A DNA stretch of 64,000 bases, taken from the NCBI RefSeq assembly GCF_964204645.1, contig NC_134030.1, forward strand, positions 14,074,110 through 14,138,109, read 5' to 3'. Positions within the stretch are counted from its first letter, which is position 1. Every line of letters begins with the position of its first letter. Source of the stretch: Tubulanus polymorphus (taxonomy: Eukaryota > Animalia > Nemertea). Position numbers and translations under genes: made by a program. The notes beneath the pieces are model-generated. The model searched no databases. It was given only the letters and a program-made list of their open reading frames with translations, and was not told the origin of the DNA. Positions 12,001 through 43,613 of the stretch are shown one piece after another.

Positions 12001-15000
12001 ACATTTCGACCCGAAAACGTCGTTCAGCGCGAGAAAAGACGTTTTCTCATCAGATCTTCTCCGTATCGAAAAAATGAAAATGTCGACACGCAAAAGCGCT
12101 CCAATCGACGGGAAAAGCACATTTCGACCCGTAAACGCCGTTCAGCGCTAGAAAAGACGTTTTCTCATCAAGTTCTCCCCGTATCGAAAAAATGAAATTG
12201 GCGATGCGCAAAAGCGCTCAAATCGACGGAAAAAGCACATTTCGACCCGAAAACGTCGTTCAGCGCGAGAAAAGACGTTTTCTCATCGAGTTTTCCCCGT
12301 ATCGAAAAAATGAAAATGTCGATGCGCAAAAGTGCTCAAATCGAGGGGAGAAGCATATTTCGACCCAAAAACGTCGTTCAGCGCGAGAAAAGACGTTTTC
12401 TCATCAAGTTTTCCGCGTATCGAAAAAATGAAATTGTCGAAGCGCAAAAGCGCTCAAATCGACGGGAAAAGCACATTTCGACACGTTTCGACCCAAAAAC
12501 GTCGTTCAGCGCGAGAAAAGACGTTTTCTCATCGAGTTTTCCACGTATCGAAAAAATGAAAATGTCGAAGCGCAAAAGCGCTCAATTCGACGGGAAAAGC
12601 ACCTTTCGACACATTTCGACCCGAAAACGTCGTTCAGCGCGAGAAAAGACGTTTTCTCATCAGATCTTCTCCGTATCGAAAAAATGAAAATGTCGACACG
12701 CAAAAGCGCTCCAATCGACGGGAAAATCACATTTCGACCCGTAAACGTCGTTCAGCGCTAGAAAAGACGTTTTCTTATCAAGTTTTCCCCGTATCGAAAA
12801 AATGAAAATGTCGATGCGCAAAAGCGCTCAAATCGACGGGAAAAGCACATTTCGAACCGAAAACGTCGTTCAGCGCGAGAAAAGACGTTTACTCATCGAG
12901 TTTTCCCCGTATCGAAAAAATGAAAATGCCGATACGCAAAAGCGCTCAAATCGACGGGAAAAGCACATTTCGATACATTTCGACCCGAAAACGTCGTTCA
13001 GCGCGAGAATAGACGTTTTCTCATCAAGTTTTCCCCGTATCGAACAAATGAAAATGTCGATACGCAAAAGCGCTCAAATCGACGGGAAAAGCACATTTCG
13101 ATACATTTCGACCCGAAAACGTCGTTCAGCGCGAGAAAAGACGTTTACTCATCGAGTTTTTTCCGTATCGAAAAAATGAAAATGCCGATACGCAAAAGCG
13201 CTCAAATCGACGGGAAAAGCACATTTCGACCCGAAAACGTCGTTCAGCGCGAGAAAAGTCGTTTTCTCATCAGATCTTCTCCGTATCGAAAAAATGAAAA
13301 TGTCGACACGCAAAAGCGCTCCAATCGACGGGAAAATCACATTTCGACCCGTAAACGCCGTTCAGCGCTAGAAAAGACGTTTTCTCATCAAGTTCTCCCC
13401 GTATCGAAAAAATGAAATTGTCGATGCGCAAAAGCGCTCAAATCGACGGAAAAAGCACATTTCGACCCGAAAACGTCGTTCAGCGCGAGAAAAGACGTTT
13501 TCTCATCAGATCTTCTCCGTATCGAAAAAATGAAAATGTCGACACGCAAAAGCGCTCCAATCGACGGGAAAAGCACATTTCGACCCGAAAACGTCGTTCA
13601 GCGCTAGAAAAGACGTTTTCTCATCAGATCTTCTCCGTATCGAAAAAATGAAATTGTCGATGCGCAAAAGCGCTCAAATCGACGGAAAAAGCACATTTCG
13701 ACACATTTCGACCCAAAAACGTCGTTCAGCGCGAGAAAAGACGTTTTCTCATCAAGTTTTCCCCGTATCGAAAAAATGAAAATGCCGATACGCAAAAGCG
13801 CTCAAATCGACGGGAAAAGCACATTTCGACCCGTAAACGTCGTTCAGCGCTAGAAAAGACGTTTTCTTATCAAGTTTACCCCGTATCGAAAAAATGAAAA
13901 TGTCGATGCGCAAAAGCGCTCACATCGACGGAAAAAGCAGATTTCGACCCAGAAACGTCGTTCAGCGCGAGAAAAGACGTTTTGTCATCAAGTTTTCCCA
14001 GTATCGAAAAAATGAAAATGTCGAAGCGCAAAAGCGCTCAAAATCGACGGGAAAAGCACATTTTGAACCGAAAACGTTGTTCAGCGCGAGAAAAGACGTT
14101 TACTCATCGAGTTTTCCCCGTATCGAAAAAAATGAAAATGCCGATACGCAAAAGCGCTCAAATCGACGGGAAAAGCACATTTCGATACATTTCGACCCGA
14201 AAACGTCGTTCAGCGCGAGAATAGACGTTTTCTCATCAAGTTTTCCCCGTATCGAACAAATGAAAATGTCGATATGCAAAAGCGCTCAAATCGACGGGAA
14301 AAGCACATTTCGATACATTTCGACCCGAAAACGTCGTTCAGCGCGAGAAAAGACGTTTTCTCATCAGATCTTCTCCGTATCGAAAAAATGAAAATGTCGA
14401 CACGCAAAAGCGCTCCAATCGACGGGAAAATCACATTTCGACCCGTAAACGCCGTTCAGCGCTAGAAAAGACGTTTTCTCATCAAGTTTTCCCAGTATCG
14501 AAAAAATGAAAATGCCGATACGCAAAAGCGCTCAAATCGACGGGAAAAGCACATTTCGATACATTTCGACCCGAAAACGTCGTTCAGCGCGAGAAAAGAC
14601 GTTTTCTCATCGAGTTTTCCCCGTATCGAAAAAATGAAAATGTCGATGCGCAAAAGCGCTCAAATCGAGGGGAGAAGCATATTTCGACCCAAAAACGTCG
14701 TTCAGGGCGAGAAAAGACGTTTTCTCATCAAGTTTTCCACGTATCGAAAAAATGAAAATGTCGAAGCGCAAAAGCGCTCAAATCGACGGGAAAAGCACAT
14801 TTCGACACAATTCGACCCAAAAACGTCGTTCAGCGCGAGAAAAGACGTTTTCTCATCGAGTTTTCCACGTATCGAAAAAATGAAAATGTCGAATCGCAAA
14901 AGCGCTCAAATCGACGGGAAAAGCACCTTTCGACACATTTCGACCCGAAAACGTCGTTCAGCGTGAGAAAAGACGTTTACTCATCGAGTTTTCCCCGTAT

Positions 15001-15701
15001 CGAAAAAATGAAAATGCCGATACGCAAAAGCGCTCAAATCGACGGAAAAAGCACATTTCGACCCGAAAACGTCGTTCAGCGCGAGAAAAGACGTTTTCTC
15101 ATCAGATCTTCTCCGTATCGAAAAAATGAAAATGTCGACACGCAAAAGCGCTCCAATCGACTGGAAAATCACATTTCGACCCGTAAACGCCGTTTAGCGC
15201 TAGAAAAGACGTTTTCTCATCAAGTTCTCCCCGTATCGAAAAAATGAAATTGTCGATGCGCAAAAGCGCTCAAATCGACGGAAAAAGCACATTTCGACCC
15301 GAAAACGTCGTTCAGCGCGAAAAAAGACGTTTTCTCATCAAGTTTTCCCCGTATCGAAAAATGAAAATGTCGATACGCAAAAGCACTCAAATCGACGGGA
15401 AAAGCACATTTCGATACATTTCGACCCGAAAACGTCGTTCAGCGCGAGAAAAGACGTTTTCTCATTGAGTTTTCCCCGTATCGAAAAAATGAAAATGTCG
15501 ATGCGCAAAAGCGCTCAAATCGAGGGGAGAAGCATATTTCGACCCAAAAACGTCGTTCAGCGCGAGAAAAGACGTTTTCTCATCAAGTTTGCCACGTATC
15601 GAAAAAATGAAAATTTCGAAGCGCAAAAGCGCTCAAATCGACGGGAAAAGCACATTTCGACACATTTCGACCCAAAAACGTCGTTCAGCGCGAGAAAAGA
15701 C
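1..15701. repeat. Tandem satellite DNA array, 118-bp monomer with a 128-bp variant (10-bp ACATTTCGAY duplication); roughly 130 monomers; runs off the left edge of the window
   Basis: The unit CGTCGTTCAGCGCGAGAAAAGACGTTTTCTCATC...CGTATCGAAAAAATGAAAATGTCGA...CAAAAGCGCTCAAATCGACGGGAAAAGCACATTTCGACCCGAAAA repeats continuously and stops abruptly at ...GAGAAAAGAC (15701). Confidence 0.99.
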
Positions 15702-16310
15702 AATAATTCCTGGTAAAGCTGCAGCAGATTTTTTAGATAGTTCCCATAAATATTTTGCTAATTTCTTTAAACCATCTTTAATTTTATCTTGTATAGAATC
15801 ATTCGGGGGTTTATCCGGTTTATTGGGAGTAGGAGTAGATTTCAAAGAATTTGATATTGCTAAACCAATTGTTGTAAATAACATAGTTACAGCTGTTAGA
15901 ATTGAAAGAATTGTTATTCCTTCTAATTTAAATAATAACTTTATTCTATCTTTCAATGATATTTCAGAATTTGGTTTAATCAACAAATCTTTAAAAATAA
16001 CTTTTGAAAATGCTAAAGGTCCAACGTCTTCATCATTTATGTTAAGTTTGGAATTTTCAATTATACGTTCTAATTTAGGTATTTTGTTTAAATTATCTAA
16101 ATCTTTTTTTACTAAATCTGGGTCTAAATTTTCAGGATTTAATTGTGATTCTGCATTTTTAATATAATCAGGCATATTTAAATTATTATTATATTCTGGC
16201 TCATTACCGTCATTAAAACTTGTTTCACTAAAATCAGGCGGTTGTTCTTCAGTTATGCCAGGTTCATCTAAAGGATCCATTCCAATTTCTTCTCCACCTT
16301 CTACATCCAT
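15702..16310 (-). pseudogene. Viral predicted membrane protein, C-terminus truncated by the satellite
   Basis: Acidic N-terminus, hydrophobic segment EGITILSILTAVTMLFTTIGLAI, Pro-rich linker, amphipathic helix ending ALPGII at the junction. The rest of the ORF-track translation (to 15633) is satellite read-through. Confidence 0.7.
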
Positions 16311-16329
16311 TTATATAATAAAAAAATTA
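16308..16329 (-). promoter_or_regulatory. Shared viral promoter-like cassette TAA-T7-ATTATA-TAAATG
   Basis: Read on the minus strand; one of 8 copies. Confidence 0.75.
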
Positions 16330-17648
16330 AAATTTAAAATATAATATTCCTCCTATAACAATTCCTATACAAGTTAAAGCTAATTTAGTATTAAAATGGA
16401 ATTTATTATCATTATCAGTTTTAATTATATCATGTTGAATATTATCAGTTTTAATATTTTCTGATGAATTATGATCCGGTTTAGAATCACTATTTAATTT
16501 AATATTCTTAGTTTAGTTTCTGTTGATTGAATATGTTTTTTATTTTTTTCACCTTCCATTAATTTTGGAGCAGTAATAATCTTTTTATTTATATCATTTA
16601 ATCCAAATGAATTATTTATTGTTGCAGTTTTAATTAGATTATTGTAACCAATGATGTTTCCCATCTTTAATACTAAATCATTAGAAATAATTAATAGATT
16701 AGGGCCTATACAATAATTTAATCTAATATGTGATTTATCTAAATAATTTTGATATCTTACAATGTTTTCTGGAATCGATCTATTTTTATCATCATGAATA
16801 GAATCTTCAAATAATACTTTGAATTGTTTCTGTGCATCGAATGAAGTGTTATCATTTCCAATTATTGGGGATCTTGTTTCAACTTGTGCACCTAGAATAC
16901 ATATCAAATAAGTTCTAATTGATTGATTTATTCTTTGTATTCCAGCTTTAGTAAAACCTTCACCATTTTCTAAAATGAAATTAACCCAACCATTATGGTT
17001 TTGTTGTTGTATATTATTATAACATTTTGGTAATTCATTCCAATTTAGTGTTCTTATATCTGAATTTGTCATTATTTTTCCAAATTCTTTAGTATATAAT
17101 ATTCCGAATCCACCCATTGTTCCAATTTTTGCTCTAAAATCTTTATTTGAATTAATATTAAATTCATTACATATTTTATAAAACTTAGAAAAATTAATAT
17201 TATTATTTAGTTCTTTAAAATATTTTGAACCTGGTAAAGGACATTCTAATTCATCTAATATTAATTTTATTTGAAAATATGTATGAAATCTAAAAAGTGA
17301 TAACATCAATGGTAAACTTGGTTTGTTTAAATGATCATTCCAACTAATTCCGCATCCTGTTCTTGCGCAATAAACAGCAAAATTTAATTGGTTCTGCCAA
17401 TACTTCATATTAGATTTTAATAACCATTGTTTTGCCTCATTTAAATTTTTGAAATTAATTGTATACACATGAAATATATTTTCCATCTTTACATGAAAAT
17501 TATTACTTTCAGTAACATAAATATATAAATCAATTAATGAATTTAAAACTTCATTTCTATATGTAATATCTTTATTAAAATCTATTGCTGGAATATTATA
17601 TTTAATTGATTTATTATATTGGAAAGCTTTTGGAAAACTATCTACCAT
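16327..17648 (-). pseudogene. Viral ~440-aa protein with C-terminal membrane anchor (frameshift near 16510)
   Basis: 384-aa ORF (WQNQLNFAVYCARTGCG motif) continues in another frame as ...KFHFNTKLALTCIGIVIGGILYFKF*, with its stop at 16327-16329 inside the shared intergenic motif. Confidence 0.7.
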
Positions 17649-17667
17649 TTATATAACAAAAAAATTA
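17646..17667 (-). promoter_or_regulatory. Shared viral promoter-like cassette TAA-T7-GTTATA-TAAATG
   Basis: Read on the minus strand; one of 8 copies. Confidence 0.75.
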
Positions 17668-18099
17668 ATAATTTATTAATTCTTTTAATAATTTATCTTG
17701 TTCTTCAACTGTTATATGACCATTTAAACTTATTAGTGTATCTAATGTATTCTTTAATTTATTAATTTCTTTTATATTAGTTTTAATTTTTTCTTTATTA
17801 CTTTTTATATTCAATTTTGAACTTATACCAGTTAAAACACTTGAACTTAATCCTAATACACCAATTGATATAGCTAAAGGTGTTAATGGTGAGAATATTG
17901 CAAGAAATGTTATTACAGAACTAATTGTAACTGAACCACTAATAATAAGATAATATATAATTTTACTTTTTAAATATTTTTTCTTTTTAACTTTTAAATC
18001 ATTTTCAAATTCTAATATTTGTTTTTCTAAATATATTTTTAATTTAGTTTTATTTATATCATGAGGAATAATATCAATACTATCAACTTTATCTTCCAT
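17665..18099 (-). CDS. Viral 144-aa protein: coiled coil, two hydrophobic helices, coiled coil
   Basis: Intact ORF with hydrophobic stretches IIYYLIISGSVTISSVITFLAIF and LAISIGVLGLSSSVLTGI; flanked by the shared motif. Confidence 0.75.
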   Translation of the reverse strand: MEDKVDSIDIIPHDINKTKLKIYLEKQILEFENDLKVKKKKYLKSKIIYYLIISGSVTISSVITFLAIFSPLTPLAISIGVLGLSSSVLTGISSKLNIKSNKEKIKTNIKEINKLKNTLDTLISLNGHITVEEQDKLLKELINY

Positions 18100-18118
18100 T
18101 TTTTTAGAAAAAAAATTA
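18097..18118 (-). promoter_or_regulatory. Shared viral promoter-like cassette, variant TAA-T8-CTAAAAAAATG
   Basis: Same 22-nt spacing, with AAAATG in place of TAAATG. Confidence 0.6.
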
Positions 18119-18540
18119 CTAATTAGTAAAGTTATATGCTACAAATATAACAATAAATGTTCCGCCTAAAATCCAAATTATTTCATATTTCTGCTGTTCC
18201 TTACTTGGGGTATAATAATCTGATATTGTAGGTTTATGTAGATGTAATTTTTCTTTATTGGTTACCGCGTTATATAAACTCATTGCATCATCGACTGATT
18301 GAAAATCTCTATGTGAAATCTTCTGATCATATAATTCCTTGTTATGTAATCCATATAGTTTTGTCTCTTTTCTCTATATTCTTCCGCTGCTTTATTGTAT
18401 TTCTCTAAAGCTATGTTATGTCTTTTTTGTTCTTCTAATGAACTATTTTTATCTATATGCCTAAATAAATAACTACCGCCAGTAAATGCTAAAGCGTTAG
18501 CAATTGCCGATCCTATAATAGTTATAACTGCAGAAGCCAT
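18119..18540 (-). pseudogene. Viral protein with N-terminal hydrophobic helix, coiled coil and C-terminal hydrophobic tail (frameshifted)
   Basis: MASAVITIIGSAIANALAFTGGSYLF...EEQKRHNIALEK; downstream frames give SDYYTPSKEQQKYE and WILGGTFIVIFVAYNFTN*. Confidence 0.65.
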
Positions 18541-18559
18541 TTATTTAGCAAAAAAATTA
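18538..18559 (-). promoter_or_regulatory. Shared viral promoter-like cassette TAA-T7-GCTAAA-TAAATG
   Basis: The TAA here is not the upstream stop codon, which is at 18565. Confidence 0.75.
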
Positions 18560-18564
18560 TGCAT

Positions 18565-18786
18565 TTATATGGGAGGAATATATTTTTGTTTTTCCAAATA
18601 ATCAATAGTTAAATTAGATAAAGTAACTGCTAATGTTAATTTTAAAATATAATTTATATCAAATCTATCAACATTAACACTTCCCATTTTAAATACTTTT
18701 TTTAATACCATTGAATAACCACCAGTTCCAACTGATAGTAATGCTCCATTATATATTCCAGTTATTATCCACTTATTATCACTCAT
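18565..18786 (-). CDS. Viral small hydrophobic protein (73 aa)
   Basis: Intact ORF preceded by the shared motif; two moderately hydrophobic segments. Confidence 0.65.
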   Translation of the reverse strand: MSDNKWIITGIYNGALLSVGTGGYSMVLKKVFKMGSVNVDRFDINYILKLTLAVTLSNLTIDYLEKQKYIPPI

Positions 18787-18805
18787 TTATTTATCAAAAA
18801 AATTA
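18784..18805 (-). promoter_or_regulatory. Shared viral promoter-like cassette TAA-T7-GATAAA-TAAATG
   Basis: Embedded in the last codons of the upstream ORF. Confidence 0.75.
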
Positions 18806-19128
18806 CTATCATCAAAATATTTAGTTATCTTAGTGATGATTAATTCAACATTTATTTCATTACTACTTTTATGATTATCATATATTTTGGATAATATGTT
18901 TTTAATATCATCGATAATTCCACCTTTATTTAATTCATAATATTCTAAAGACGTTTTGATTAAATCAATTACTTTTTCTATATTATAATTTTCTTTATTA
19001 ATCATTGATGCATTGTTAAATGATTTACTTTTTATATCAGTAATTACATCATTTAGTTTAATTCTCATTTCTTTACCATGTTTAAAATCAAACTCAAAAC
19101 ATATACTCGGTCCAACAGTTATATTCAT
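18787..19128 (-). CDS. Viral hypothetical protein (113 aa)
   Basis: Intact ORF with TAAATG start inside the shared motif; abuts the next gene. Confidence 0.6.
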   Translation of the reverse strand: MNITVGPSICFEFDFKHGKEMRIKLNDVITDIKSKSFNNASMINKENYNIEKVIDLIKTSLEYYELNKGGIIDDIKNILSKIYDNHKSSNEINVELIITKITKYFDDSNFFDK

Positions 19129-19148
19129 TTATATAGTGAAAAAAATTA
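19126..19148 (-). promoter_or_regulatory. Shared viral promoter-like cassette TAA-T7-CACTATA-TAAATG
   Basis: Read on the minus strand; one of 8 copies. Confidence 0.75.
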
Positions 19149-19904
19149 CTCTCTACATCTTATAACTAATTCATAAATTACAGGGAAATTATTTAAATCA
19201 ATTAAGTATCCATTATGATTTCTAATTTCTAACCTAAAATTATTAAAACGAGGAATGCATGGTTTGAAATCACATTCTGTTAAATTATAATTTATTTGCG
19301 TTCCAAATTCTTTAACATTCTTCAATGGTAAAATGTTTAATAAACCAGAATTACAAGTTATATCTTTAGTTGCTTCGAATGTTTTTGTAGGATTGATTAA
19401 ATTGCAATAAATATAAAAATGCGTGTAAGGTATTAAGTTTGGTGTAGCATCAACATTTGAATAAAGTTTATCTGGTGTAATTCCTAATAGTTTAGCAATA
19501 GGTTTTTTAACTAAAAATTGATATTTTTCTTGATTAGTTAACCTTATCTTAATTTTATCAGAACTATCACTTTTTAAAAATCTAATACTAAACCCGGAAT
19601 TAGTACCTAATTTGTGCCAGGCTTTTCTATTAATTTCTTGAGATAATGTATCTAAATTATATAACCCTGGTTTTAGAAATAGAGGATACCATTTATTTTT
19701 ATTTTTGTTAATAACTGCAAAACCACTATGATCAATAGTTTTATCCGTTATATTATAAAAAGAATTACATAAACTCAAATTAACTAATTTTAAATCAACA
19801 CAATTCTTAAATTATCTATCTAATTGTACTTGTAAATTATGTGATTTATAATTTGTAAGTCTTCTTGAATCAACAAATATTCTGTATTCTTTTAATTCTA
19901 CCAT
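19146..19904 (-). pseudogene. Penton-like minor capsid protein (single jelly-roll), one in-frame TAA at 19812-19814
   Basis: The likely start is ATG 19904: MVELKEYRIFVDSRR...QLDR*FKNCVDLKLVNLSLCNSFYNIT...HFYIYCNLI...GLLNILPL...LEIRNHNGYLIDLNNFPVIYELVI. This pattern fits Polinton/NCLDV minor capsid proteins. Confidence 0.75.
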
Positions 19905-19926
19905 TATTTATAACATAAAAAAATTA
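19902..19926 (-). promoter_or_regulatory. Shared viral promoter-like cassette TAA-T7-ATGTTA-TAAAT-AATG (penton gene)
   Basis: There is no upstream co-oriented gene, so the motif is not merely a stop or terminator. Confidence 0.7.
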
Positions 19927-19972
19927 CCGCTCATCACTAAAAATTAATTTTAATAAAATTGTTCCTTAATAA

Positions 19973-21285
19973 ATGGATGAGAAGATAGCATGTGAAATTT
20001 GTGGTGAACTTCTAAGAAAAAGTAATATGGCTCGACATATGAAAAAACATGATGAAAATTATAAACCCCCTAAACAAAACTGTCCAAAATGTAATAAATT
20101 ATTCTCAAGAAATTATGTTAAAAAACATTCAGAGAAGTGTAAAATTAATGGTGCAACGGCTAATGTTGATAGTAATGAAAGTAATAGTAATTCTGTTGAA
20201 GTTGAACCTGAAATTATTTGGAAAAGACCTTTCTTATTCTATGATAAGGATGATATAAAAGATCATTTCTGCGAGCCTTGTCGAATAAAATATAGCCCTG
20301 AAAATATAGAAGATTGGGAGAATCATCAATTTCGTAAAGCACATATAGATAAAATTTCTAATAAATTTGAAACTGAATTCAATGAAAGAAAAAATAATTT
20401 ATTAGAAAAAATAAAATATGAGAAAACGTTACCAGATAATTAAGAAACAGTTGAAAAGTTAGAAAAACAATATAATGAATTAACAAGAAAAACATATTAT
20501 TGTAAATATTGTAAATTGATTATTACAACAAGTAATTCAAATCTACATAATAGAACAATAAAACATAAAGAAAACGTAAGAAAAAACCAAGAGCTTAATG
20601 AAAATCTATTACCAAGAAATTATAAACAAAAATGCCCACAATGTAATTACGCGACCTTAAGACAAGAAGGTACTGTGTTATTTTGTGTTGATTGTGGATG
20701 GCAAAAGAATTTATGGGGTGAAGAAAAAACTAGAAATTTTCTCAAAATTAATCCAAAATTAAATTATCTAGATGAAATTTTTAAAATATTTTCTATAGAA
20801 GATCATACACCAGAATATATGCAATGGCTTGAAAAAATGAAAATAATAGAAAATAAAAATGGTGAAATAACTAAAAAAGATATTATAAAAACAATTATTC
20901 CGTCAACATTTAACACAAAACAAAAGAAAATGTATTTATATTTATTATTTAACGATTATTATGAAAAACCTAAATTAACAGAAGAAGATATGGAAAATAT
21001 AAAAAAAATATTTAAACAAATATTAATGTATCATTTGGAAAATAGAATAACAGATTCATTAAATTATGAATTCTTTTTAATTTAAACATCGATATTATAA
21101 TTCCATTTGATGAATTAACGAACAAAAAGAAACAAAGAGAGCGAGATGAAATGTGGAATAATATAACACGTAATTTAAATGAGAAAAATGAAATGGAAGA
21201 ACCTAAACAAATTATACAAGAACAATTAAATGAAAAAGAAGAAACCAATAGTGATTTCGAGTTTGATGATATTGATACATTTTAA
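19973..21285 (+). pseudogene. Viral multi-zinc-finger protein broken by two frameshifts (near 20440 and 21080)
   Basis: CEIC..RHMKKH, CPKC..KKHSEKC, CEPC..HQFRKAH, YYCKYC..HNRTIKH, CPQC..FCVDCGW; acidic tail ...DFEFDDIDTF*; TAAATG start. Confidence 0.7.
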
Positions 21286-24200
21286 TAACCATAAGGTAAT
21301 GTTTTTATACCATCATCTGAAATATGTCTTTTATCATCAAATGGATTTAAACTAGTTTTTTCAACTTCATTAATGTACATCTCGTGATCTTCTGATCTTA
21401 AACAATTCATTTTATTTTTCATTACAATTGAGTTATATAAACACTTTATATAATCTTGAAATTCTATATGTTTATCAACATTCTTCAAATTCTTCATTAT
21501 ATTTTATAGCAAAATCTTTAGGATTATTCACATGTATTCTATAACATTGCGATGATTTCATAACATCTATGATTTTGAATGTTTTATGTGAATAAACTTC
21601 TTCACAGAATTTCTTTATTCTTTCTAATAATTTCAAATCTTGATTGCATAAATACCAGCAATATTGAGTGCGATTAACATAATTATACACACCTGCTGAA
21701 CCATCTCCCATGAAAAATCCTTTGATAAAATATTCTTTTTCTTCTAATGTTTCGGGTTCTATATTATAAATATTATCAATAATTTCATCAAATGACATAT
21801 GATTCATTCTTTGGAAAAATCTTTTATGTAATAATTCATCTCCAATTTTTATATCAGTTGGTTTTATTTCATCACCATTTCGTTTAATTAAATTATGATC
21901 TTCTGTAACATCTACAAACCCTAATTTAGTTCTAACTCTATAGATTTTCTTATTTGTTTTATGCCTAATAATATTCTTTAATTTTTTCCATCCATTTCTT
22001 GTTCAAACATCCATTAATCCATTTATTTGTATTAATTCTTTTTCACCATATGAAATATAACATTCATTTTGTTTTGGAATTATTTCTGAAATTCTTCTTA
22101 TCAATATTTTATCATTACATTTTAATAATATTGGGGTGTCAGCTGTTACAGAATCAAAATATAATATTTCAATATGCTTTTCCCCAAAAAGTGGTTGTAA
22201 AACATTATAATAAAAATCATACATTAATAATTTTGATACTTCTAAAACAGTTGAACCAATGAATATAGGTTTATTAAATTTCATTGACGTTCTTTTTAAT
22301 TTTCCCGCGGTTAAATAATCTTCAAATCTTTTATTTCCTAAATGTCTAGGACTTGATTGTAAATGTCTTAATCTTTCAGAATTATTTACTAATTCAATAT
22401 CATTTCTATTTCTAATATTTTCACATGTTTTTCCATAAAAACTATTGTTCATTAATTTGAAGAAATCTTTTTCAAAATCTGTTTTTGATATGGTTCTCTG
22501 TTGAGTATTGAAATCTATATATTTTTCTAACCACTTCGATTGATTAAATTCAATATATCTATGTACTTTCTTTAATTTCATTCCTTGTTTTACATAAAAT
22601 TTTACCATTCTATAATGAACGATATAAGTGTATTTATTATTTTGACTAAGTATTAATTTTTCTGTAAAAACATGATCTTTCGGTTTTATTTTCTTCTGGT
22701 ATTCACTTAAATAACTATCATCTACAGTTAAATGTTCTGGGCAATAAGGAAAGTTTCTTGTTTTAAACTTTATATTTTCAGGATATTCTAAATCAACTAC
22801 AAAGAAATAACCAATTGGTGCTTCATCTTCTAAACTCATAATTGCGCTTTCCCAATTAGTTTTATCATCATTTTCAACTTCTGTTAATATAAAATTTTTA
22901 TATGGTTGAGGTTGCATCATTGCCCAACCATATAAACTTTTGGCGTCAATATATAATAATTTATATTCATCATTTGCTTTAAAATACCTCCCATAACACC
23001 ACTAATTCCACCTCTAATTTATTTTTCAAATAATAAAACCATATCTGGTTCTTTTAATAAATCTAATTCTACATTTGTATATTTTAAACCACATTGCCAG
23101 GTTAAACCAGGACTAGAGTAGCAATAACAAGGATCAACATTAAAATGATTCAAATTAACTTCTCTAAATTTTTCAAATATGTCAGCCAATTTCATAACAT
23201 CTGATTTTTAAATATAATTCAACTAATTCACCATGATTTTTCATCTTAAAATGGTTCCAAATATTTAATGTTCTATTAAACACTTCGTCTTTCACATACT
23301 CCTCTTTTAATTGATCATAAAATTGATCTTTTAATAATTCTGTTACATTAAAATCATTGTGTGTTTTATAAAATGAATAAGGAATTGCGCCTTTATATCT
23401 CAATAATTTAGAATCTTGGTCATTTGGATAATAATATCGAGTTATAACGAAATCATTATCAACTAAACTTTTTGATAAATTATCTAATGAACTTGCTAGA
23501 AATCTATAAGAGTCTAAAAATCTAATGCAACCAAATTGAAATGAAATATAATTTTCAGATGTTTAAGCTAATAGTTTAAAATCATATTTTCTTACATTTA
23601 CACCATTCATAGCATTATATTCTTCTATTTCTTGATTAATTGAACCCAATTTTCCTGATAATTGTTTTATAAATAGATGGGTATCATAGCCTGATAAATT
23701 ATGAAATAAAATTGGTACGAAATTAACTTTCTTAGCTTGTAAATTGCAATCTTCATGAGCAGCTCCACGATATTTTGAATTTAAATGATTATGATCTCTA
23801 ACTTTTTTATCAAATGAATAAAAATGTTTTTCACAATAACAACAATGAGTTGCATAATTAAAATCAATTTCATCTTCTTTTGTCATAACTATTCTTTTAT
23901 TTTTGTTTAATAATTTTGCAAAATCACTTTCTAATTCAATCATTTTGTTACAAAAATCATCAACTACATCTTCACCTCTAAAAGAAATATATTGACTTTC
24001 ATATAATTCAGGATAATTTGATTTCATATAAATTCCATAAGCTGCAGCTCTTTGATGAACTTTTTTAATTGTATTTATAATTGGTGGATCCTGTGTTGTG
24101 TCTTCATTTAATTCATTTCCTTTATCCATTGATTTTAATAATTGCTTTTTGTTATATATTTCTTTTCTATCTTGATCAGTTAATTCTTTATTCAACGATT

Positions 24201-25700
24201 CAAAATCCCCATAAATTACAAATGGAACAATATTCTTAAATTTATGATTAGTAAATTTCAATTTATAATCTTTTTCTGTTGGCATTATTAATTTACAAAA
24301 ATCTTTATTATCACATAATTCTTTATGTTTTAGTAATGTATTCTCAGTCATAAATTTAGATAAACATTTTCTACATAGATAAATTTTACGATGATGATCA
24401 CTTTCTGTTCTAAAGAATAAATCAATTTGTTTTAACCACATATAATGTTCATTTTCATCTTTTTTGTAATATAACAAATCTATAGCATTTTCATCATCAT
24501 AATATTCTGTTAAATATAAAGCTTTCAATGTATAATCTTTAATATTTTCACCTTTTGTCTTTGGTAATTGCATTAATTCGAATACATTTATTTTTAAATT
24601 ATTAACTTTTTCTATTTTAAAAATCATTTTTATAGTTACTGGATATTGATCAATTTTATATAATGTTTCATATTTCCGGTAATTTGTTATTCTAAAACTA
24701 TGTGTAATATCTTCTGTTGGATGTAAGCAACTAATAATTGCCCACAGAAAACATTTATAATCTTCATTTTGAACATTTATTACTGCTTTTGTTGTAAATG
24801 GTAATTTAATATAAGATGATCCTTTAATATCCTCCTTTTCTGTTGTAAAGTTTGAATCATTTTAAAACATTTTATTACTTTTTGATGTTTTATTTCTTTT
24901 TGTATTATAAACATTTAAATCTAAAAATATAATTTCATTTAATGATAAACCAGAACCCTCAAAATATCTTTCTTCAATATGACGTTTAAATTCATTAAAT
25001 ATTTTTTCTAACTTCTCTTTTATTTGCGTTTTTGAAATTATTTCTTCAGAGAGTGTTTGAATATTATAATCCATTTTCTCTTCTGACTTTAAAAAACTTA
25101 CTTTCCCAGAGATACTAATTTTTGGATATTCAACATCTGTTATCAAATCTAGTATTTTTCTCTTATTTCATTAAATTTACTATAATCTTCTATTGTTGTA
25201 CCTTTAAAAAATCTAAATGTAATAGCTGCAGGACCAATTTTATTACGTAATGTTTCTAATATTTCAATTGTATCTTTTATTTCTAGTGAATCAATATAAT
25301 TTCTAACATTTTCCATGTAAGGTTTATTTGAAATGGATTTAGTTTTTGAAGTTGGTTTTTTTACTTGTTGAGGTTTATCATCAAAATAATATTTTCCTAA
25401 AACATTATTACTCAAATTTTGATGGTGTTTTTGTGATTCGAGATGTCTATTATAATTCCTTTTTGTTATAAATTCATTACAAACTTCACATTTTATTTCA
25501 TCCACATTCATATTTTCTAATCGTTCTTTTCTTTCATTGGAATTTTCTGAAGTTTCAAAATCTATAACATTTTTTATATGATTTGCTGTTTTTTCATGTC
25601 GTGATTTTTGGGATTTATCAATGTATTTTTTACAATATTGGCAATAATATTGATTTTTATTAACATTATTGTTTTCTGGCTGGTGTTCATTCTCCCCCAT
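21282..25700 (-). pseudogene. polB: Protein-primed family B DNA polymerase (pPolB), intein-interrupted, with many lesions and an internal deletion
   Basis: In order: two Zn fingers; GSSYIKLP...VINVQNEDYKCFLWAI (OTU-like); ExoI VIYGDFES; endonuclease VII CCYC..VRDHNH..YRGAAHEDCN; ExoII HNLSGYD; FLDSYRFL; ExoIII YLK/SDV; IRGG; motif A YIDAKSLYGWAM; motif B KLMNNSFYGKT; motif C YFD|; C-terminal KTSLNPFDDKR..TLPYGY. In-frame stops at 24862, 23563, ~23020 and 22003; frameshifts near 25148, 23207 and 22990. Confidence 0.95.
21490..22152 (-). mobile_element. Intein (HINT N-region plus first LAGLIDADG motif) at the Pol-c site of pPolB; C-terminal half deleted
   Basis: Starts SVTADTPILLK immediately after YFD; V*TRNGWKKLKNIIRHKTNKKIYRV; block B VDVTEDHNL; LAGLIDADG helix FIKGFFMGDGS. 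It stays in frame across the TGA at 22003. Confidence 0.92.
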
Positions 25701-25719
25701 TTATTAGGAAAAAAAATTA
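25698..25719 (-). promoter_or_regulatory. Shared viral promoter-like cassette TAA-T8-CCTAA-TAAATG (polB)
   Basis: Precedes the polB ATG at 25700; no upstream ORF. Confidence 0.75.
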
Positions 25720-25723
25720 CTTG

Positions 25724-25794
25724 TGGTGATGAGTGGTGTCTCGACCGCACGACCTCTGGTATGAAACCCACATCTTCCTATTACTAAGACCACC
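25724..25794 (-). tRNA. Degenerate tRNA-like sequence resembling initiator tRNA-Met
   Basis: 71 nt GGTGGTCTTAGTAATAGGAAGATGTGGGTTTCATACCAGAGGTCGTGCGGTCGAGACACCACTCATCACCA; ends pair 6/7; B-box-like GGTCGAGAC; T8 run follows. The D, anticodon and T stems pair poorly. Confidence 0.35.
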
Positions 25795-25886
25795 TAGTGT
25801 TAATTCACACACAGCACTGAATTGACTGCTGTCCATTGTCACATTCAGAATAACCATCGTTAATAAAAAAAAAAACAAGTAGCCTC

Positions 25887-26480
25887 AGCGACGGAGATCA
25901 CTGGTGGAGACAACCACTGCCAGTGCTGGGTGAAATGGTATTGTTGTCGATTGACGACCGTTCCTTTGAGCAGGGTAGATTTTGATGGTGCTGTAACGGA
26001 GACATACTGCCTTGTATGTCGATATCTTCGAGGTCACACGCAGTACAGGTTCTCGCAGAAGCGTGACCTCATAGTTTTGGTCGAGTTTCTTTCTTCTATT
26101 GATGTAAAAATCGACTTTTAAGAGGTCCATAGAACGTAAATCGAGACACTCTGGAGGCGGCCATGTTACATTGCTCACGTGATGAAATACTGAAATCTGA
26201 TTGGATCCGTATATTCCGCGGAAGATGGCGGACGGTTTAAACCTGTCCTATTTAAACTGGTCGCCTGTCCAATTCTGCGCCACCTGCATTCGCAGTCAGA
26301 ATAGGACAGGAGCGACAACCTGTACTACGTGTGGCCTCGATGATATCGACATACAAGGCAGTATGTCTCCGTTACAGCACCATCAAAATCTATCCTGCTC
26401 AAAGGAACGGTCGTCAATCGACAACAATACCGTTCACCCAGCACTGGCAGTGGTTGTCTCCACCAGTGATCTCCGTCGCT
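25887..26480. repeat. Inverted repeat, ~170-bp arms (25887-26056 and 26312-26480) with ~255-bp spacer
   Basis: AGCGACGGAGATCACTGGTGG...GATATC...CAGGTTCTCGC is reverse-complementary, with few mismatches, to GCGACAACCTG...GATCTCCGTCGCT. Confidence 0.9.
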
Positions 26481-28108
26481 CTACGATCCTAGTGTAACCA
26501 TCTGTGGCACGACACTAAGATTCTCAGTGAACAATACCGACGAACTTGAGATAATTTCTACTCACTGACTTACTGAACTGAACCAGCCATGCAGCAGAGG
26601 CCACGACACCGGCAATTTGTTTGTTCACTTAAGATGACTGATTGATTATGCTGAATGTGACACTAGATATTAGCAGTCAATTCAGTGTGGTGAAAATATT
26701 AGCTTATACGACGGGTAACTTCACTTACTTCACTTCAATGTCTTTTAAAACTTGTGAACAGTAAATGAATACTTATTTACAAATATTCTGTTGATTGTCT
26801 ATTGTAGGTCATTGTGTGTGTTCTGATGTTGATTTTCTGAGATACAACTCAGGTTTTCTTAAGAATTAGAAGTTATACGTATTAAATTGAATGAGCTCAA
26901 CATACACATGAATTGTTGTTGTATCATGGTAATTTTGAAAAACGGATGAAACACGAATTGAAAAGTCAATCCAGGTTTAATTGTTAGTGTATGCATATCA
27001 GTTTAATTTCAGAAATTAACCTCAATCACGAATCAAAGAGATTAACGAATCCAGCACTAATCATCATGAAATTAGATTCCAAACAACAATTGTGGTGAAA
27101 ATCCTAGATTCTGATACAGTAATGAGTTTTAAAGAGCTGGAATTTATTAATCCCACGAGCGAGCATGCAATACGAATTGAGATTGGATTTAGGCCTACTT
27201 TCTGGTCAAGACTTGGTCTTTGTGATTCGAGTTAAGTTAGAGATATCAGTGTCATTCTGTTGTCACACAATTTGCCATGTCACAAAATACATATGTCACC
27301 GTCTTGTCAGGCAGTCTGTATATTGAATAAGATTTTGTACTAGAAAGTGGACAATAAATATAGAATTGCCAGTAAAAAAGAGTTTTTGTGATGGATTTTA
27401 CTCAATTTCTAGCAAAAATCATGTATGGTCCATGGGGAGAGGAAAATATTGCAAGTTAATCTGATCACTGGTCTATCCCAACTTGCTGTCTGTATCATCA
27501 GGAATATATGTAGAGATGCCGCGTTGGATCCAAATATCTGATATAAAAAAACTGACAAGGAGTTCAACTGTTGTAAACTTTATTCAGACTTTAGTCATTT
27601 TCACATCATCAGAAACACAACAATTGAGTGAATATATTTTACATATCAGCCAAGTTCCCTCAGAATGACTATCACAGCTGATCCCTTTTTCTTACCTACA
27701 AAATTAATAAGTATCAATATCAGCGGATTAATTCGATACTCACAGCAATTAATGCCTTTTCTTCGGTCTTTAAATTTACGTTTGTTTGCCGATTACATTT
27801 ATGATTCATAGATTATCAGTTGATTTACTGTAATCAATCATTCCAGTGCGATTTTGATATTACTCTTAGTTTCGCTTATTCGATGAGACGCCATTTTAAC
27901 CCGGAAGTAACTCGATACTGACATGTTTGACATGCATCGAAAATGTAAAATGGATGATGGGATCAACCCGGTCTCTAACTGAAGGTTCACCAAGAGTCTT
28001 AGTGTCTGATGTACCAGGATCGTAGAGCGACGGAGATCACTGGTGGAGACAACCACTGCCAGTGCTGGGTGAAACTGAAGGTAGAGACCGGCAACCAGTC
28101 TATGTCCT

Positions 28109-29262
28109 CACAGGGGCTCGTTACGATAGCTGGGGGTCCAAAATCAAAGATTTGACCCAGTATCCTAGGTACCACCTATAAAAAAAGAAAAGGGAGCTAA
28201 CATTTTGACATACTAGAATTGACCTTCTCATTTCAATCGCTCATAACTTCGTAACTCATCGACCGATTCGCTCGAAATTGGTTTCGTTTCATTCCTAAGA
28301 GGTTACTTTTTTTTGAGACCTTCCGCGACAAAATCGGATACGAGACACCCGAGAAATCACGACTCAAATCCGAAAAAACGAGTCAAAATAGCCAAAGCCG
28401 GAATTACTAGGACGTCTCGGAGTAGTCGATTCCCGACGAAAAACGATGAGTTGACGCGGTTCCCGGACGTTAATCTTCACATATCATACATCGCTGGAAA
28501 GCTTATGAACTGACCTTATTGAAAAATGCGTTTATTTGATAATCCGTTCCGAAACCGGCGACAAGCGAGGTGATAATACGCACCGAACCGATAAATACGC
28601 ACTTAAAGCGTCACTGAACCGCCATTGAGGGTGTGACGTCACGGGCTCTGAGGACTGATAAATTCGCGATACGTGATTGGTCGACTGAATATGTTAATTA
28701 TCTAGCGTTGCATGCTGGGATTTCTCATGACGTCACGCAGTTAATGGCGGCCGGAATACACTTGGAAATCGTATTTATCGCATCAATCTGGATTATCAGC
28801 TCGCCAGTCGCGGGTATCGGAACGGATTATCAAATAAACGCGTCTGTCAATAAGGTCAGTTCATAAGCTTTCCAGCGATGTATGATATGTGAAGATTAAC
28901 GTCCGGGAACCGCGTCAAATCATCATTTTTCGTCGGGAATTGAGCACTTCAAGCCGTCCTAGTAATTCCGGCTCTGGATATTTTGACCCGTTTTTTCGGA
29001 TTTGAGTCGTGATTTCTCGGGCGTCTCCGGTCCGATTTCATCGGGGAAGGTCTCAAACGAAAAAGTCACCTCTTGGGAATGAAACGAATCTAATTTCGTG
29101 TAAATCGGTCGATCGGTTACGAAGTTATGAGGGGTTGAAATGAGAAGGTCAATTCTTGTATGTCAAAATGTTAGCTCCCTTTTCTTTTTTTATAGGTGGT
29201 ACCTAGGATACTGGGTCAAATCTTTGATTTTGGACCCCCAGCTATCGTAACGAGCCCCTGTG
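28109..29262. mobile_element. Non-autonomous foldback DNA transposon (1154 bp, almost wholly palindromic), 8-bp TSD TATGTCCT; P or hAT superfamily
   Basis: Ends CACAGGGGCTCGTTACGATAGC...GCTATCGTAACGAGCCCCTGTG; TSD at 28101-28108 and 29263-29270; arms pair for about 500 bp. Confidence 0.92.
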
Positions 29263-31932
29263 TATGTCCTATTCTGACTGCGAATGCAGGTGGCGCAGAA
29301 TTGGACAGGCGACCAGTCTAATATTTCGGCGGTTTCTCTCGTAAAATATTATTACCAACTTCCGTCGTGTGAGATATAACATCGACCAGGAACGGCGATT
29401 GAAACAAAATGGCGACGTTTAAGATAGGTATAAAATAGCTAAAATTTGCTACAATTAACGTAGAAAAGGTGATTATCTGTGCATTCAATCAATAACTTCC
29501 AGTCTTTCTTGAAGTAGGATTATATGTGATGGATGATATGGAGGTGACGGACTCCTTATCAGCAATGATTCGTTTTGCATTAATTCAAGTTGTAGATAGA
29601 TAGATTGTAGTAGAAATAGAATAGGCCTACATTACAATACAACGCAATCGCCACCAGTCCACAGGGGTTTGCGATGGGCTTGGATTTTATTTCCGGGTTG
29701 TTGATAATCTCGCAAGAATGGCACTAAATATGAACTGCAAATAAATTATAATTTTAAAATACCTTATAAATTCAAAATACCTTGTTTTTATAATGTTTAT
29801 TTATCCGCTATAGGCCTAAATAAAGTTCCGATAAACAATTGGTCCTTAAGGATCATTATCAGACGGTCGATATGGCCTAATTAGCGTATTTTAGTGTCGA
29901 CACCTCTAAACTGTAACTTAATTGTTCGATGTTAGGGTTTTCAAGTGAAAATTTTCCAAACACTATACAAACAATTTAAAAGGCCTAGATGAAAGAAGGG
30001 TTTAATATAATATCATAGCAATTGAGCTATAAATTGGATCCGTTTTCCGTTTTCTATCTGCGCGAAGTAGTTACACGATCGCGTAATGACGTCTTGCGCA
30101 AGTTGTTACTTCGTGCAGAATAAACCTGCAGGTGCGCGATCGCGTATTGATGTACTGTACCGCGCGAGTTCTTCACGCAGAATGAACCGCGCGAGTAGTG
30201 ATGAACAGATTTGACTTTATTCAATTAATTATGCAGCGAACTGTTAAAACATCAATAGGCCTATTAATAAAGATAAGATTTCCACTAGGCCTATTTGGAT
30301 TTGTCAAGAAGCGATATTTAATAGAAACGTTGTTATTTGTAAATTATCGCTATAAAGATTTAATGGTTTTGATTTTATATGCCTAAAGACGATGATTGAT
30401 TACATCGATGTAGTGTATCAAACTTGTAACTTGTAGTGTATCAAAATAGTGATATGGTACGTGAAAACTAGCTTATTTACCTTTATCTGTTTATTAATCC
30501 TAATGTCATGAAATAATCCTGGTCTTGTTATATGATTATATTAGTGTATTCCGACATGTGCCCAAGACGATGTCCTAACGTAAACTGACCCGTTCCGTTA
30601 GTCGTCGTGCTGCGACCGATTTTTATCTCGGAACGCCGCACACCTCGTTAAAAAATCTAAAAATATAAACCATTTTTATTTGATCAAGCAAAAGATCCAA
30701 AACGAAACTACATCTCCTAAACGTCTTAACAAATAAATATATCTAGGACACTTATACTAATATAACGTTACTTAGGCCTACTGTGCCAATCGTATGCTGA
30801 CTGACAAATTCCGCAGACGACTTCGGACCACGTACACCCTGCCTTGTTCAGTCTAAAATCCGATCAAGGGTTCTTGAATGGCAGGTCTGCAGGCCACTAT
30901 GGCACTCTTTTGGATTCATCGCCCCAGCCCGGACAGTTTGAATGAAATATCAGCGTGGCACAGATCGATCTAACTTCGTTACTATACAGATCACGGATCT
31001 CCATTTTTTCTTTTCGTGAAAATAACTCACTCACTTTCGGCAAATCTCCGTTAGTTTCCTTTGCCGTACCTGCTGGTGCCGAAGGCACGTGCTCCACAAA
31101 TTTCTGCCGAATGTCATTCGTTGCACCTTCTGTTACCTTTGTGGAAAGTGTGAGGGATTCCAGTTTGTTTTTGTTATGTTGGTTCTTTCCTTCCTCTAAT
31201 CCGCAAAGAATAACCGCATATCCCGATTTCTTCGAAGATTTCTCAGCATACTTCGTTGCCATATGCCACATGTCGTAAATTTGCTGTCATTTTGTTTGAG
31301 TCCGTAACCATGTCATTGGTCGTTGAGCGTTGGTCGTTTTCCGTTGTAAGTGATGTTAAGTGTTAAAAGAATCAAATAATACCGTTTTATGTGCTGAGAA
31401 ATTGCATATTTTTATATGGTTCTTCTATCATTGTCTTCAGAATTTCTAGACCAATTATTTTACATAAGTCTTCTAAACACGATAATTATGAAGAAATTAG
31501 GGTTCCTGGTACGGTTGGCAAACATTGTGCTGGTGTTTTAAAATAAATGGGCGAATGGGATTACTTATTATGCACATGTCACAATTTCTGCTTCGTTTTA
31601 CATTTTGGCTACTTATTGTAAGAAAATTACTCCCATTTGAATCTAATTCTAAAGAATTAGGTACCGATTATAATGATTTCATTGTTCATTACCTCAGGAG
31701 CCAACACTGGACGGGTACTTCAGAGTTTAAAAATGCATTAACATAGTAGTTTATACTAGACTTAAAATTAGTTAACGGCAGAAATTCATAATAAATGAGT
31801 ATATTCATAGTAATCAAGTTATAGCCAATCAGGCGTATTCCATCCGACTGCCAGGTGCCTTCAGAAAGTAACTTTTTTATTGACCAAAAAGAAAATCTTA
31901 ATTGATTAATGCAAATGATAGATTTCAAATAT

Positions 31933-32051
<119 letters not shown>

Positions 32052-40720: not shown

Positions 40721-41331
40721 CCAGATTATATTGATACCTAATCATATTTTGTTACCACAATCGATTGCAAAGTTGTAGCTCATGACATTGTCTATGATTG
40801 TGGTGAGTTTTAAGGACATGAGTTAGTCTATATGGTCACCAGGGGGTGTTGAATAGTAGAATAACTTAGTATTTCTTTATAAGATTAGTACCTAGGCATA
40901 TTTTGTTACCATGATCAATTGCAAAGTTGTAGTTCATGACATGTTCTACTAATGTGGTGAGTTTCAAGGTCATTGGGTTTTGCATATGGTCACCAGGAGG
41001 CATTAAATAGTAGAATAACTTAGTATTTCCATATTAGATTGGTAATGAGGCATATTTTGTTATCACAATCAATTACAAAATCGAAGCAGCTGACATATTC
41101 AATGATTGTAGTGAGTTTCAAGGTCATTGGTTTTTGTATATAATCACCAGGGGGCGTTCTTTATGGTGTGCAGAGTTGAAAGCCTGATTTACTGATAGCA
41201 TCAGATTTTTGAGATGAGTCTGACATATACACGAGTGGAATACTTGTTTTATCATCATTAATTGAAGCATTAGCGTTCCATTTTGGAGCCTGATTATTAG
41301 CTTGTTAACTGCGGTACAGTGATGAGCGTTT

Positions 41332-42347: not shown

Positions 42348-43613
42348 TTTTTGGCCCACTTGGGACTTTAGTCCCAGCGGGCTATTGCGTTCCCTTTTCG
42401 TCCGTTGTCCGTTCGTCCGTAGACGGAATCCAGTTATTTTGGGAAGTTTTGAAGACACTCTAAGGTAACGTCTTGATATTTGGGTTACACATGTATCTAC
42501 CCTAGACCCATCTTCAGCCCAAAAACTGGCTCTGTCAGAATCAAGATGGCCGACTGGCAGCCATTGTTGTTCGCCAAAATCAGCACTTTTTACACATTTT
42601 TCAACTTTTTTAGGGAAATTTTGAAGAGGCTTTGATCAATTAGCTTGATCTATCGGATATATGTGAATCCCCCCAGGGCCCATCAGCATAACAAAAATTA
42701 GGTCGTTTAGACTCAAGATGGCCGTCCCATGACCTTTTCAGTGCCCAAAAATGTTAATTTTGGCCCGAATCCTGAGTCCTGTAGCTTCCTACTGGTTTCC
42801 CATTTCTCATTGCAATTTGTGATGGGTATTCTTTGGAAAGGGATGTTTTATACCAGAGAGGTATTTTTCATCAGCCAATAATGATGCAATTGGCGGCCAT
42901 CTTGGTGTCACCAGTACTCATTCGTAAGTGGGAAAAAGTTTTTCCACATTATATTGATACCTAAGCGTATTTTGATACCACAATCAATTAGAAAGTTGTA
43001 GCTCATAATGTGTTCTATGATTGTGGTGATTTTCAAGGTAATTGGATTTTCGTATATATGGCCACCAGGGGGCGTTGAATAATAAAATATCTTCGCATTT
43101 CTTTATTATATTCGTACCTATGCATATTTTGTAACCATAATCAATTGGAAAGTTGTAGCTCATGACATCATCTATGATTGTTGCGAGTTTTGAGGACATT
43201 AGTTTTTCTATATGGTCACCAGGGGGCGTTGAATAGTAGAATAACTTAGTATTTCCTTGTTATATTGGTACCTAGGCATATTTTGTCACCATGATCAATT
43301 GTAAAGTTGTAGTTCATGACATGTTCTATGATTGTGGTGAGTTTCGAGGTCATTGGGTTTTGAATATGGTCACCAGGGAGCGTTGAATAGTAGAATAACT
43401 TAGTATTTCCATATTAAATTGGTAACGAGGCATATTTTGTTATCACAATCAATTACAAAATCGTAGCTGCTGACATGTTCTATGATTGTGGTGAGTTTCA
43501 AGGTCATTGGTTTTGTATATGGTCACCAGAGGGCGTTGAATATTGAAATTGTTAGATTGTTGAGCATTTGGAACCACTTCCCAAGTGGGCATGGTGTCCC
43601 TGGGCCCCTAGTT
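42348..43613 (+). mobile_element. Helentron-associated (HINE-like) element with about four internal 154-bp tandem repeats
   Basis: 5' TTTTTGGCCCACTTGGG, (GTCC)-like microsatellite near the 5' end, subterminal CCCAAGTGGGC, then a short GC-rich segment and AGTT; repeat anchors at 43060, 43214, 43368 and 43521. Confidence 0.8.

Follow-up and report, generated by a model that had tools for sequence, protein, structure and literature searches.

Genes of a broken Maverick/Polinton in the nemertean Tubulanus polymorphus and of its relatives start at a signal resembling a poxvirus late promoter

How the Mavericks/Polintons of animals are expressed and spread is the question addressed here: they could act as nuclear viruses in their own right, as transposons or by parasitizing viruses larger than themselves. 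The material is an AT-rich element of this kind, found in 64,000 nucleotides of the nemertean Tubulanus polymorphus (NC_134030.1, positions 14,074,110 to 14,138,109; this whole stretch is called the window). In protists, promoters borrowed from giant viruses are described for mavirus and the endogenous mavirus-like elements (EMALEs), with the TCTA motif of Cafeteria roenbergensis virus (CroV) (PMC8547959), and for Gezel-14T and PgVV, with AAAATTGA (10.1101/2022.07.28.501842). According to the first of these sources, the late motif of CroV in mavirus heads structural and replication genes alike, on both strands. Such virophages and such polinton-like viruses (PLVs) resemble the system described here in that one helper-type motif precedes the genes of an integrating double-jelly-roll virus, that the motif varies by lineage and that an AT-rich element sits in a GC-richer host. 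They differ in their protist hosts, their Mimiviridae-type helpers and their proven dependence, whereas here we deal with a Maverick with a Beta-type DNA polymerase B (PolB), a pox-type promoter grammar and a likeness of promoters only.

Several other systems are close in one respect or another. PLVs were found in occlusion bodies of entomopoxviruses, which is a precedent for poxvirus-associated PLVs; these too are Polinton-type, tied to poxviruses and found in animals, and one lineage adjoins the maverick-polintons, but they are described without an rve integrase and their link is co-purification in the occlusion bodies (PMC11296320). Adintoviruses and the Mavericks with a Beta PolB have in common with the family of the present element a protein-primed PolB (pPolB), an rve integrase, an A32 ATPase and a double-jelly-roll capsid protein (PMC8502044, PMC11071308), and homing-endonuclease inserts in the pPolB of polintons were already noted (PMC11071308). 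The yeast plasmids pGKL1/2 are also pPolB elements with a TAAAN initiator at gene starts; they differ in encoding an RNA polymerase and a capping enzyme of their own and in using an early-type upstream sequence (PMC6211774). The accessible parts of the adintovirus papers PMC8502044 and PMC11071308 hold no promoter or helper analysis, and those of the coral study PMC11131425 and of PMC11296320 no promoter analysis. In the literature searched, which was thin on subscription papers and did not extend to supplements, pox-type promoters in integrase-bearing Mavericks are unreported. Promoter borrowing by protist virophages and PLVs is known; what appears to be new is a pox-type signal in integrase-bearing Mavericks.

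Late promoters of vaccinia virus carry TAAAT, usually followed by G at the start codon, and the tenth base upstream of it is conserved as T (PMC11980589). A T-containing core lies 5-7 nt from TAAAT, and in African swine fever virus (ASFV) a TATTT core at -15 to -11 is combined with TATATA at the start (PMC5294985). In vaccinia and pGKL, slippage at the start gives a poly(A) leader (PMC6211774, PMC7163114). The signal in the window has the vaccinia late architecture proposed by an earlier, sequence-only reading of this DNA: TAAAT(G) on the start codon, a 6-nt spacer within the 5-7 nt range, a T ten bases upstream and, as is sometimes seen in vaccinia, an ATG that may follow a few bases later. 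It differs from the vaccinia promoter in its setting, an integrating element of 15-20 kb in which no RNA polymerase was found, in a conserved A at -15, and in heading all genes, polB included.

The word TAAT followed by seven T occurs exactly eight times on the two strands of the window, always on the minus strand and each time 22-25 nt before one of eight ATGs. The cassette spans 22 nt in six cases, 23 nt at 19128 and 25 nt at 19904. These positions and spans, and the AAAATG at 18099, agree with the sequence-only reading. The start signals are:

16308 to 16329, minus strand: cassette 1, seven T, 6-nt spacer, TAAATG
17646 to 17667, minus strand: cassette 2
18097 to 18118, minus strand: cassette 3, eight T, AAAATG variant
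18538 to 18559, minus strand: cassette 4
18784 to 18805, minus strand: cassette 5, inside the 3' end of the upstream open reading frame (ORF), whose stop is the TAA of TAAATG (stop-start, 18789)
19126 to 19148, minus strand: cassette 6, 7-nt spacer
19902 to 19926, minus strand: cassette 7, TAAATAATG, before the first gene of a divergent pair
25698 to 25719, minus strand: cassette 8, before polB, with no same-strand gene upstream
19950 to 19975, plus strand: signal of the one plus-strand gene, a variant that keeps TAAATG and the T at -10 but is A-rich in place of the seven T

The run of seven T is centred on -10 and is followed by the 6-nt spacer to TAAATG. TAAAT is present at eight of the nine window starts and T at the tenth base before it at all nine. 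In the cassette at 19904, TAAATAATG, the register of TAAAT is kept and the ATG is displaced 3 nt downstream. The leading TAA is not an upstream stop at 18559, 18805, 19926 and 25719, as had been claimed, and at 18118 it comes after the actual TAG stop. The vaccinia intermediate consensus AAAxAAx11-13TAAA (PMC7911368) was compared by eye with the plus-strand start and does not fit it. The word CTCATCAC is found at 19936-19943 (plus strand) and 25725-25732 (minus strand), shortly upstream of the start signals of the zinc-finger gene and of polB.

In the 10,179-nt element, the strict cassette was observed seven times, against a mean of 0.02 and a maximum of 1 in 1000 dinucleotide shuffles (0.05 expected when the whole window was shuffled, again against seven), and TAAT with seven T eight times against a mean of 2.0 and a maximum of 7, so that none of the 1000 shuffles reached eight. 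Since the pattern was drawn from the eight window sites, the independent test is the held-out ranking in L001, a syntenic relative 81% identical to the window element that continues beyond the break of the latter. With a matrix built from the eight window sites, 11 of the 16 gene starts of L001 fell within the top 17 of 22,924 positions, among them those of five of the eight genes absent from the window; the remaining five starts ranked 107, 119, 349, 496 and 15,757.

The relatives, L001 among them, are the best 80 of 208 confirmed metagenome stretches, and the loci are partial. In L001-L004 (66-81% DNA identity in aligned blocks), TAAAT stands at or just before the ATG in 28 of 29 curated starts, and the anchored starts have T at -10 (26/28), A at -15 (26/28) and A at -1 (27/28). 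Kept across the relatives are the A at -15, T at -11 to -9, and TAAAT. The leading TAA and the full run of seven T are details of the window lineage; relatives show TAT, GAA or AAA and shorter runs. At least five T are present in -13 to -7 at 27 of 36 gene-start TAAAT and at 60 of 620 other TAAAT, these sites being related and not independent. The register between TAAAT and the core is maintained when the ATG shifts, at 19904 in the window, at 1306 in L003 and at 960 in L004. A distant clade (18 loci, about 31-40% identity, GC 0.31-0.39) has exact TAAATG at 67 of 74 ORF starts, compared with 6.7% of all its ATGs; there T reaches 0.93, 0.66 and 0.72 at -11, -10 and -9, and C or G never occurs at -11 or -10. 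Structural and replication genes are headed alike, on both strands. Being above the shuffled background (7 against 0.02) and conserved in homologous elements (28/29; 67/74), the signal is a genuine cis-element, as the sequence-only reading held.

On a FastTree phylogeny of 74 rows, which came with long-branch warnings, the signal marks three subclades inside one 30-row branch and requires four changes. It is absent from the other branch of 44 rows and from L005 and L006, the sisters of the window clade, and is retained in two other clades, whose GC is 0.31-0.44 and whose spacers are unrelated. The base at -3 separates the lineages most tellingly: where starts are validated by homology, the TAAATG clades have T there at 70 of 75 and the other Maverick lineages a purine at 83 of 98, a comparison weakened by groups that were set after the TAAATG counts had been seen, though they follow the tree. 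T at -3 is a poor Kozak base, and a fixed U at this place is not what one expects of a host-type mRNA. Its presence in place of the Kozak purine therefore favours a transcription initiator over a translation signal.

We consider it very probable that the signal is a promoter of single genes with the transcription start in TAAAT, and, if so, a helper virus is its likely reader. Taken as a whole, the reading that we favour, by a modest preference, is a promoter read by the polymerase of a helper large DNA virus, in an element with a virophage-like life. We infer this because of the geometry, the contrast at -3, the register of TAAAT, the failure of the RNA-level readings discussed below and the lack of the RNA-polymerase motif DxDGD in the ORFs of the 80 partial loci. 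The T core, short spacer and TAAAT(G) would form a one-gene promoter, to be read by the multisubunit RNA polymerase that a cytoplasmic large DNA virus brings into the co-infected cell, a virus with poxvirus-like late-promoter rules. Transcription would start inside TAAAT, and slippage on AAA would add a 5' poly(A) leader, by which the mRNA would regain an A at -3. Until the helper infects the cell, the integrated copy would lie silent; infection would then switch on its genes, its own PolB would replicate it, and packaging would take place in the virus factory or close to it, as happens to mavirus with CroV.

Several observations weigh against this helper-read promoter, in addition to the late grouping in the -3 comparison. 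The likeness to poxviruses was judged by the promoter descriptions in two reviews (PMC11980589, PMC5294985). The sole miss among the 29 starts of L001-L004, the integrase of L001, is without the signal, and in the distant clade the T peak lies at -11 (0.93), with only 0.66 at -10. TAAATG itself is found at 38 of 127 starts in 14 loci that we take to be iridovirus-like, and 27 further large-virus loci have it at 72 of 342. When viral contigs were scanned with the tight cassette, 31 single matches turned up, one of them at a gene start, and these named no helper. The relatives of the element's intein are not in poxvirus polymerases, and the support for its sister group is only 89-93. Tight head-to-head gene pairs occur in Kozak-type lineages too (L012, L045, L064), and such packing therefore does not discriminate and is given no weight. 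Finally, coral polintoviruses are transcribed in colony RNA-seq (PMC11131425); some lineages are therefore transcribed without a known helper.

Among the other explanations, the one that survives best, though we regard it as unlikely, is a compact core promoter (T-rich element plus initiator) read in the nucleus by the host RNA polymerase II, with nearly leaderless mRNAs and a pox likeness due to convergence in AT-rich DNA. Polintons carry an integrase and reside in the DNA of the nucleus, coral colonies express the genes of their polintoviruses (PMC11131425), and the TATA-box word TATATAAA or TATAAAT lies within four of the eight cassettes. However, a TATA box initiates 25-30 nt downstream (PMC5294985), which is past these ATGs, and homology places the protein starts there. 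A spacing of 10 nt between core and initiator also misfits the pre-initiation complex, as was argued for ASFV (PMC7163114). The start dialects, moreover, differ between sister elements, and the poor T at -3 speaks against host-type starts, as the lineages without the signal keep the purine (83/98).

It is less probable still that a factor or polymerase encoded by the element reads the signal, as in the cytoplasmic linear plasmids of yeast, from its unseen part or from an unassigned ORF such as that of a conserved 440-aa protein. In pGKL, a TAAAN initiator, slippage and an own polymerase do go together (PMC6211774); several conserved ORFs of the present elements have no assigned function, and all observed elements are partial. 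Some polintoviruses carry VLTF3 (PMC11131425), to which 3242-3748 of L006 gave a weak match (E 6e-4, below the cut-off). Yet no DxDGD motif and no Pfam match to a polymerase or capping enzyme was found in the ORFs of the window, of L001 and in 34 of the 100 listed ORFs of other loci; the 440-aa protein occurs also in lineages without the signal, and such machinery is unreported in polintoviruses according to PMC6211774.

We hold action at the RNA level to be quite improbable, whether the cassette lets ribosomes reinitiate by stop-start on a polycistronic mRNA, accepts a splice or trans-splice, or serves the upstream gene as poly(A) signal or terminator. TAA with seven T looks like a branch point and pyrimidine tract, but AG stands between the T-run and the ATG in none of the eight cassettes. 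AATAAA is present in three of the eight, but at only 21 of the 75 validated starts, and TTTTTNT at 19 of them. The leading TAA is an upstream stop in three cases, and the TAAATG at 18789 is a true stop-start; however, the signal is also found before first genes (25700) and on both sides of divergent pairs (19904/19973, and 10981/11054 in L001). A role of the T-run as the poxviral early terminator TTTTTNT, which the sequence-only reading noted it to match, was not supported. Such a terminator comes after early genes and is avoided in their coding strand, but the word is kept at those 19 of 75 starts only, the T-run also precedes genes with no same-strand gene upstream, and eight non-cassette copies of the word lie inside minus-strand coding DNA. 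A TTTTTNT does lie about 19 nt after the stop of the plus-strand gene, a frequent occurrence in DNA of this kind. A chance product of AT-rich sequence, or one junction copied among genes, can be dismissed: the GC of the element is 0.237 and TAAT with seven T alone averages 2.0 per shuffle, but seven cassettes against 0.02, the held-out ranking and the retention in two clades with unrelated spacers refute it.

If the promoter is read by a helper, it is rather doubtful that this helper is a true poxvirid, other large viruses fitting TAAATG too. Against a firm assignment to poxviruses stand the TAAATG of iridovirus-like starts and the relatives of the intein, which sit in non-pox polymerases. In the iridovirus-like loci, TAAATG is preceded by AA without a T core (T 0.26-0.34 at -11/-10), and in the 27 other large-virus loci it comes with a weak T excess. 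A looser scan of viral contigs returned 120 stretches from 6 of 64 parts, 12 of them at ORF starts. In neither the loose nor the tight scan did a virus use the cassette genome-wide, among sampled contigs that did not include poxvirus core regions. In the iridovirus-like contigs L213-L225 and L253, about 30% of the starts are AATAAATG, with A at -6 and an A-rich -13 to -11, a candidate late-promoter motif.

The inteins of Beta PolBs form one clade (seven rows, SH-aLRT 100) among the inteins of Pol-delta-like large-virus polymerases, in a quick tree of 49 of the 101 inteins in which the row of P0128, a mis-cut long branch, was ignored. This placement implies past co-residence with such viruses. 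Eleven loci of large viruses whose PolB clade has a related intein have mostly TATAAAATG-like starts, and TAAAT at 14 of 124. The window copy (21480-22152) and P0121, P0122, P0126, P0132, P0135 and P0144 have a motif C intein in a Beta pPolB, allelic with inteins of RNA-primed PolBs of large viruses. P0128 has an intein in a second pPolB type too.

The sister locus L006 has a different, bipartite signal of T core plus TATA. At 10 of 13 starts a TATA lies no more than 22 nt away, which holds for 35 of 402 ATGs in general, and in most cases an ATTTTCT-like core precedes it. This is an asfarvirus-like TATA dialect, resembling the late initiator of ASFV (PMC7163114, PMC5294985). At 619, 657 and 1941 of L005, a T- or A-run is combined with TAAAAATG starts, as in the large-virus loci L202-L212. 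We tentatively suggest, from promoter sequences, that whole clades of integrase-bearing animal Mavericks could be endogenous virophages with helper-tuned promoters; it is conceivable, to about the same degree, that at least three subclades of such elements use a pox-type TAAAT dialect and a sister element an asfar-type one with TATA, other lineages having kept host-type starts. If this is true, helper-triggered proviruses of the virophage type extend from protists to animal genomes, the dialect predicts undiscovered poxvirus-like viruses of aquatic invertebrates, and helper switches can be read on the Maverick tree. The precise 22-nt signal common to the genes of the clade is a sequence handle for finding the helper.

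The AT-rich block runs from 15702 to about 25880, with a GC of 0.234 against 0.377 in the right flank. Judged from its sequence, it is a truncated, decayed and dead Maverick/Polinton of the Beta-PolB type, because it holds a broken pPolB and is syntenic with L001, which carries capsid, integrase and ATPase genes. Its features and those adjoining it are:

1 to 15701: array of a 118-bp host satellite, abutting the broken end of the element directly
15702 to 16310, minus strand: rest of a gene that has 485 aa in L001, truncated by the satellite; the capsid, integrase and ATPase genes that follow in L001 are missing
16327 to 17648, minus strand: conserved Maverick protein, 384-aa ORF (about 440 aa in relatives), frameshift near 16490, 160 homologues
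17665 to 18099, minus strand: 144-aa two-helix membrane protein, weak SLATT match below the cut-off
18119 to 18540, minus strand: gene frameshifted near 18330, orthologue of a 139-aa gene
18565 to 18786, minus strand: hydrophobic ORF of 73 aa, with homologues in 16 of the 80 loci
18787 to 19128, minus strand: 113-aa ORF, orthologue of L001 1333
19146 to 19904, minus strand: candidate minor capsid (penton) gene with homologues in 48 of the 80 loci, interrupted by an in-frame stop near 19812
19973 to 21285, plus strand: zinc-finger gene, orthologue of L001 11054, broken by a stop at 20441-20443 and a change of frame near 21075
21282 to 25700, minus strand: pPolB, Beta type, with several frameshifts and stops and about 220 residues missing near the end
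21480 to 22152, minus strand: intein at motif C of the polymerase, including a homing-endonuclease part; it has one in-frame stop and lacks its C-terminal end

The polymerase matches P0121 (PF03175 above the cut-off) over most of its length by tblastn, and its intein is 63% identical to the complete intein of P0121, with a Pfam Intein_splicing match below the cut-off (E 4e-5). The penton label is our assumption, from synteny; a PDB profile search gave no match. We take the polymerase to be of the Beta type from its motifs and from the two classes of PMC8502044, not from a tree. For the 384-aa protein, a confident structure model was obtained (pLDDT 87.5), and it had no match in Pfam, PHROG, PDB sequences, Foldseek (PDB, BFVD) or the Atlas. 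It did not match VIA either (best Z 4.6, root-mean-square deviation 2.9, 62 aligned). This failure to match folds and families proves neither novelty nor function. Neither this protein, nor its alignment, nor the capsid of L001 had relatives among the viral contigs searched, and Rfam gave no match.

Beyond the point where the window copy breaks, L001 carries a double-jelly-roll capsid, an rve-chromo integrase, an A32 ATPase and a deoxynucleoside kinase. The product of 5877-7121 is predicted to fold like double-jelly-roll capsids (Foldseek E 1e-15). The rve integrase is found in L001 and six further loci and is absent from the truncated window copy, and the A32 ATPase (PF04665), present in L001, L006, L012 and L014, was lost from it. 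Unlike the adintoviruses and Beta Mavericks, L001 adds the kinase and no protease was found here, Ulp1/adenain giving no Pfam match in 20 ORFs of the window, 15 of L001 and 34 of the 100 listed others, in partial loci. The kinase gene (10340-10981, minus strand), here in a Maverick, has three close homologues (60-67%), and no close viral relative of it was found.

Among the tight head-to-head pairs, 19 of 23 overlap or sit 14-15 nt apart. In L008, L014, L029, L033, L039 and others, the genes of the ATPase and of the 440-aa protein face each other and share 16-43 nt; each begins at a TAAATG within the coding sequence of the other. In the capsid pairs of such loci, 14-15 nt apart, the CATTTA of one strand occupies the T-core position of the other.

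No paired terminal arms (terminal inverted repeats) were found within 15000-32000, the left end being replaced by satellite. To the right of polB, nested inverted-repeat elements resembling miniature inverted-repeat transposable elements (25887-26493 and 28013-29321) may hide the terminus. The right flank is repeat-rich eukaryotic DNA with a reverse-transcriptase remnant (50669-51628, minus strand), and the window has host-type features: the satellite, several microsatellites, retro-elements and more GGCCTA than expected (19 against 4.9), an excess known from echinoderms and some fishes. Together they point to an animal host. Tandem repeats of 154 bp and 107 bp also lie in the host flank, at 40735-41155, 42937-43542 and 53574-53895.

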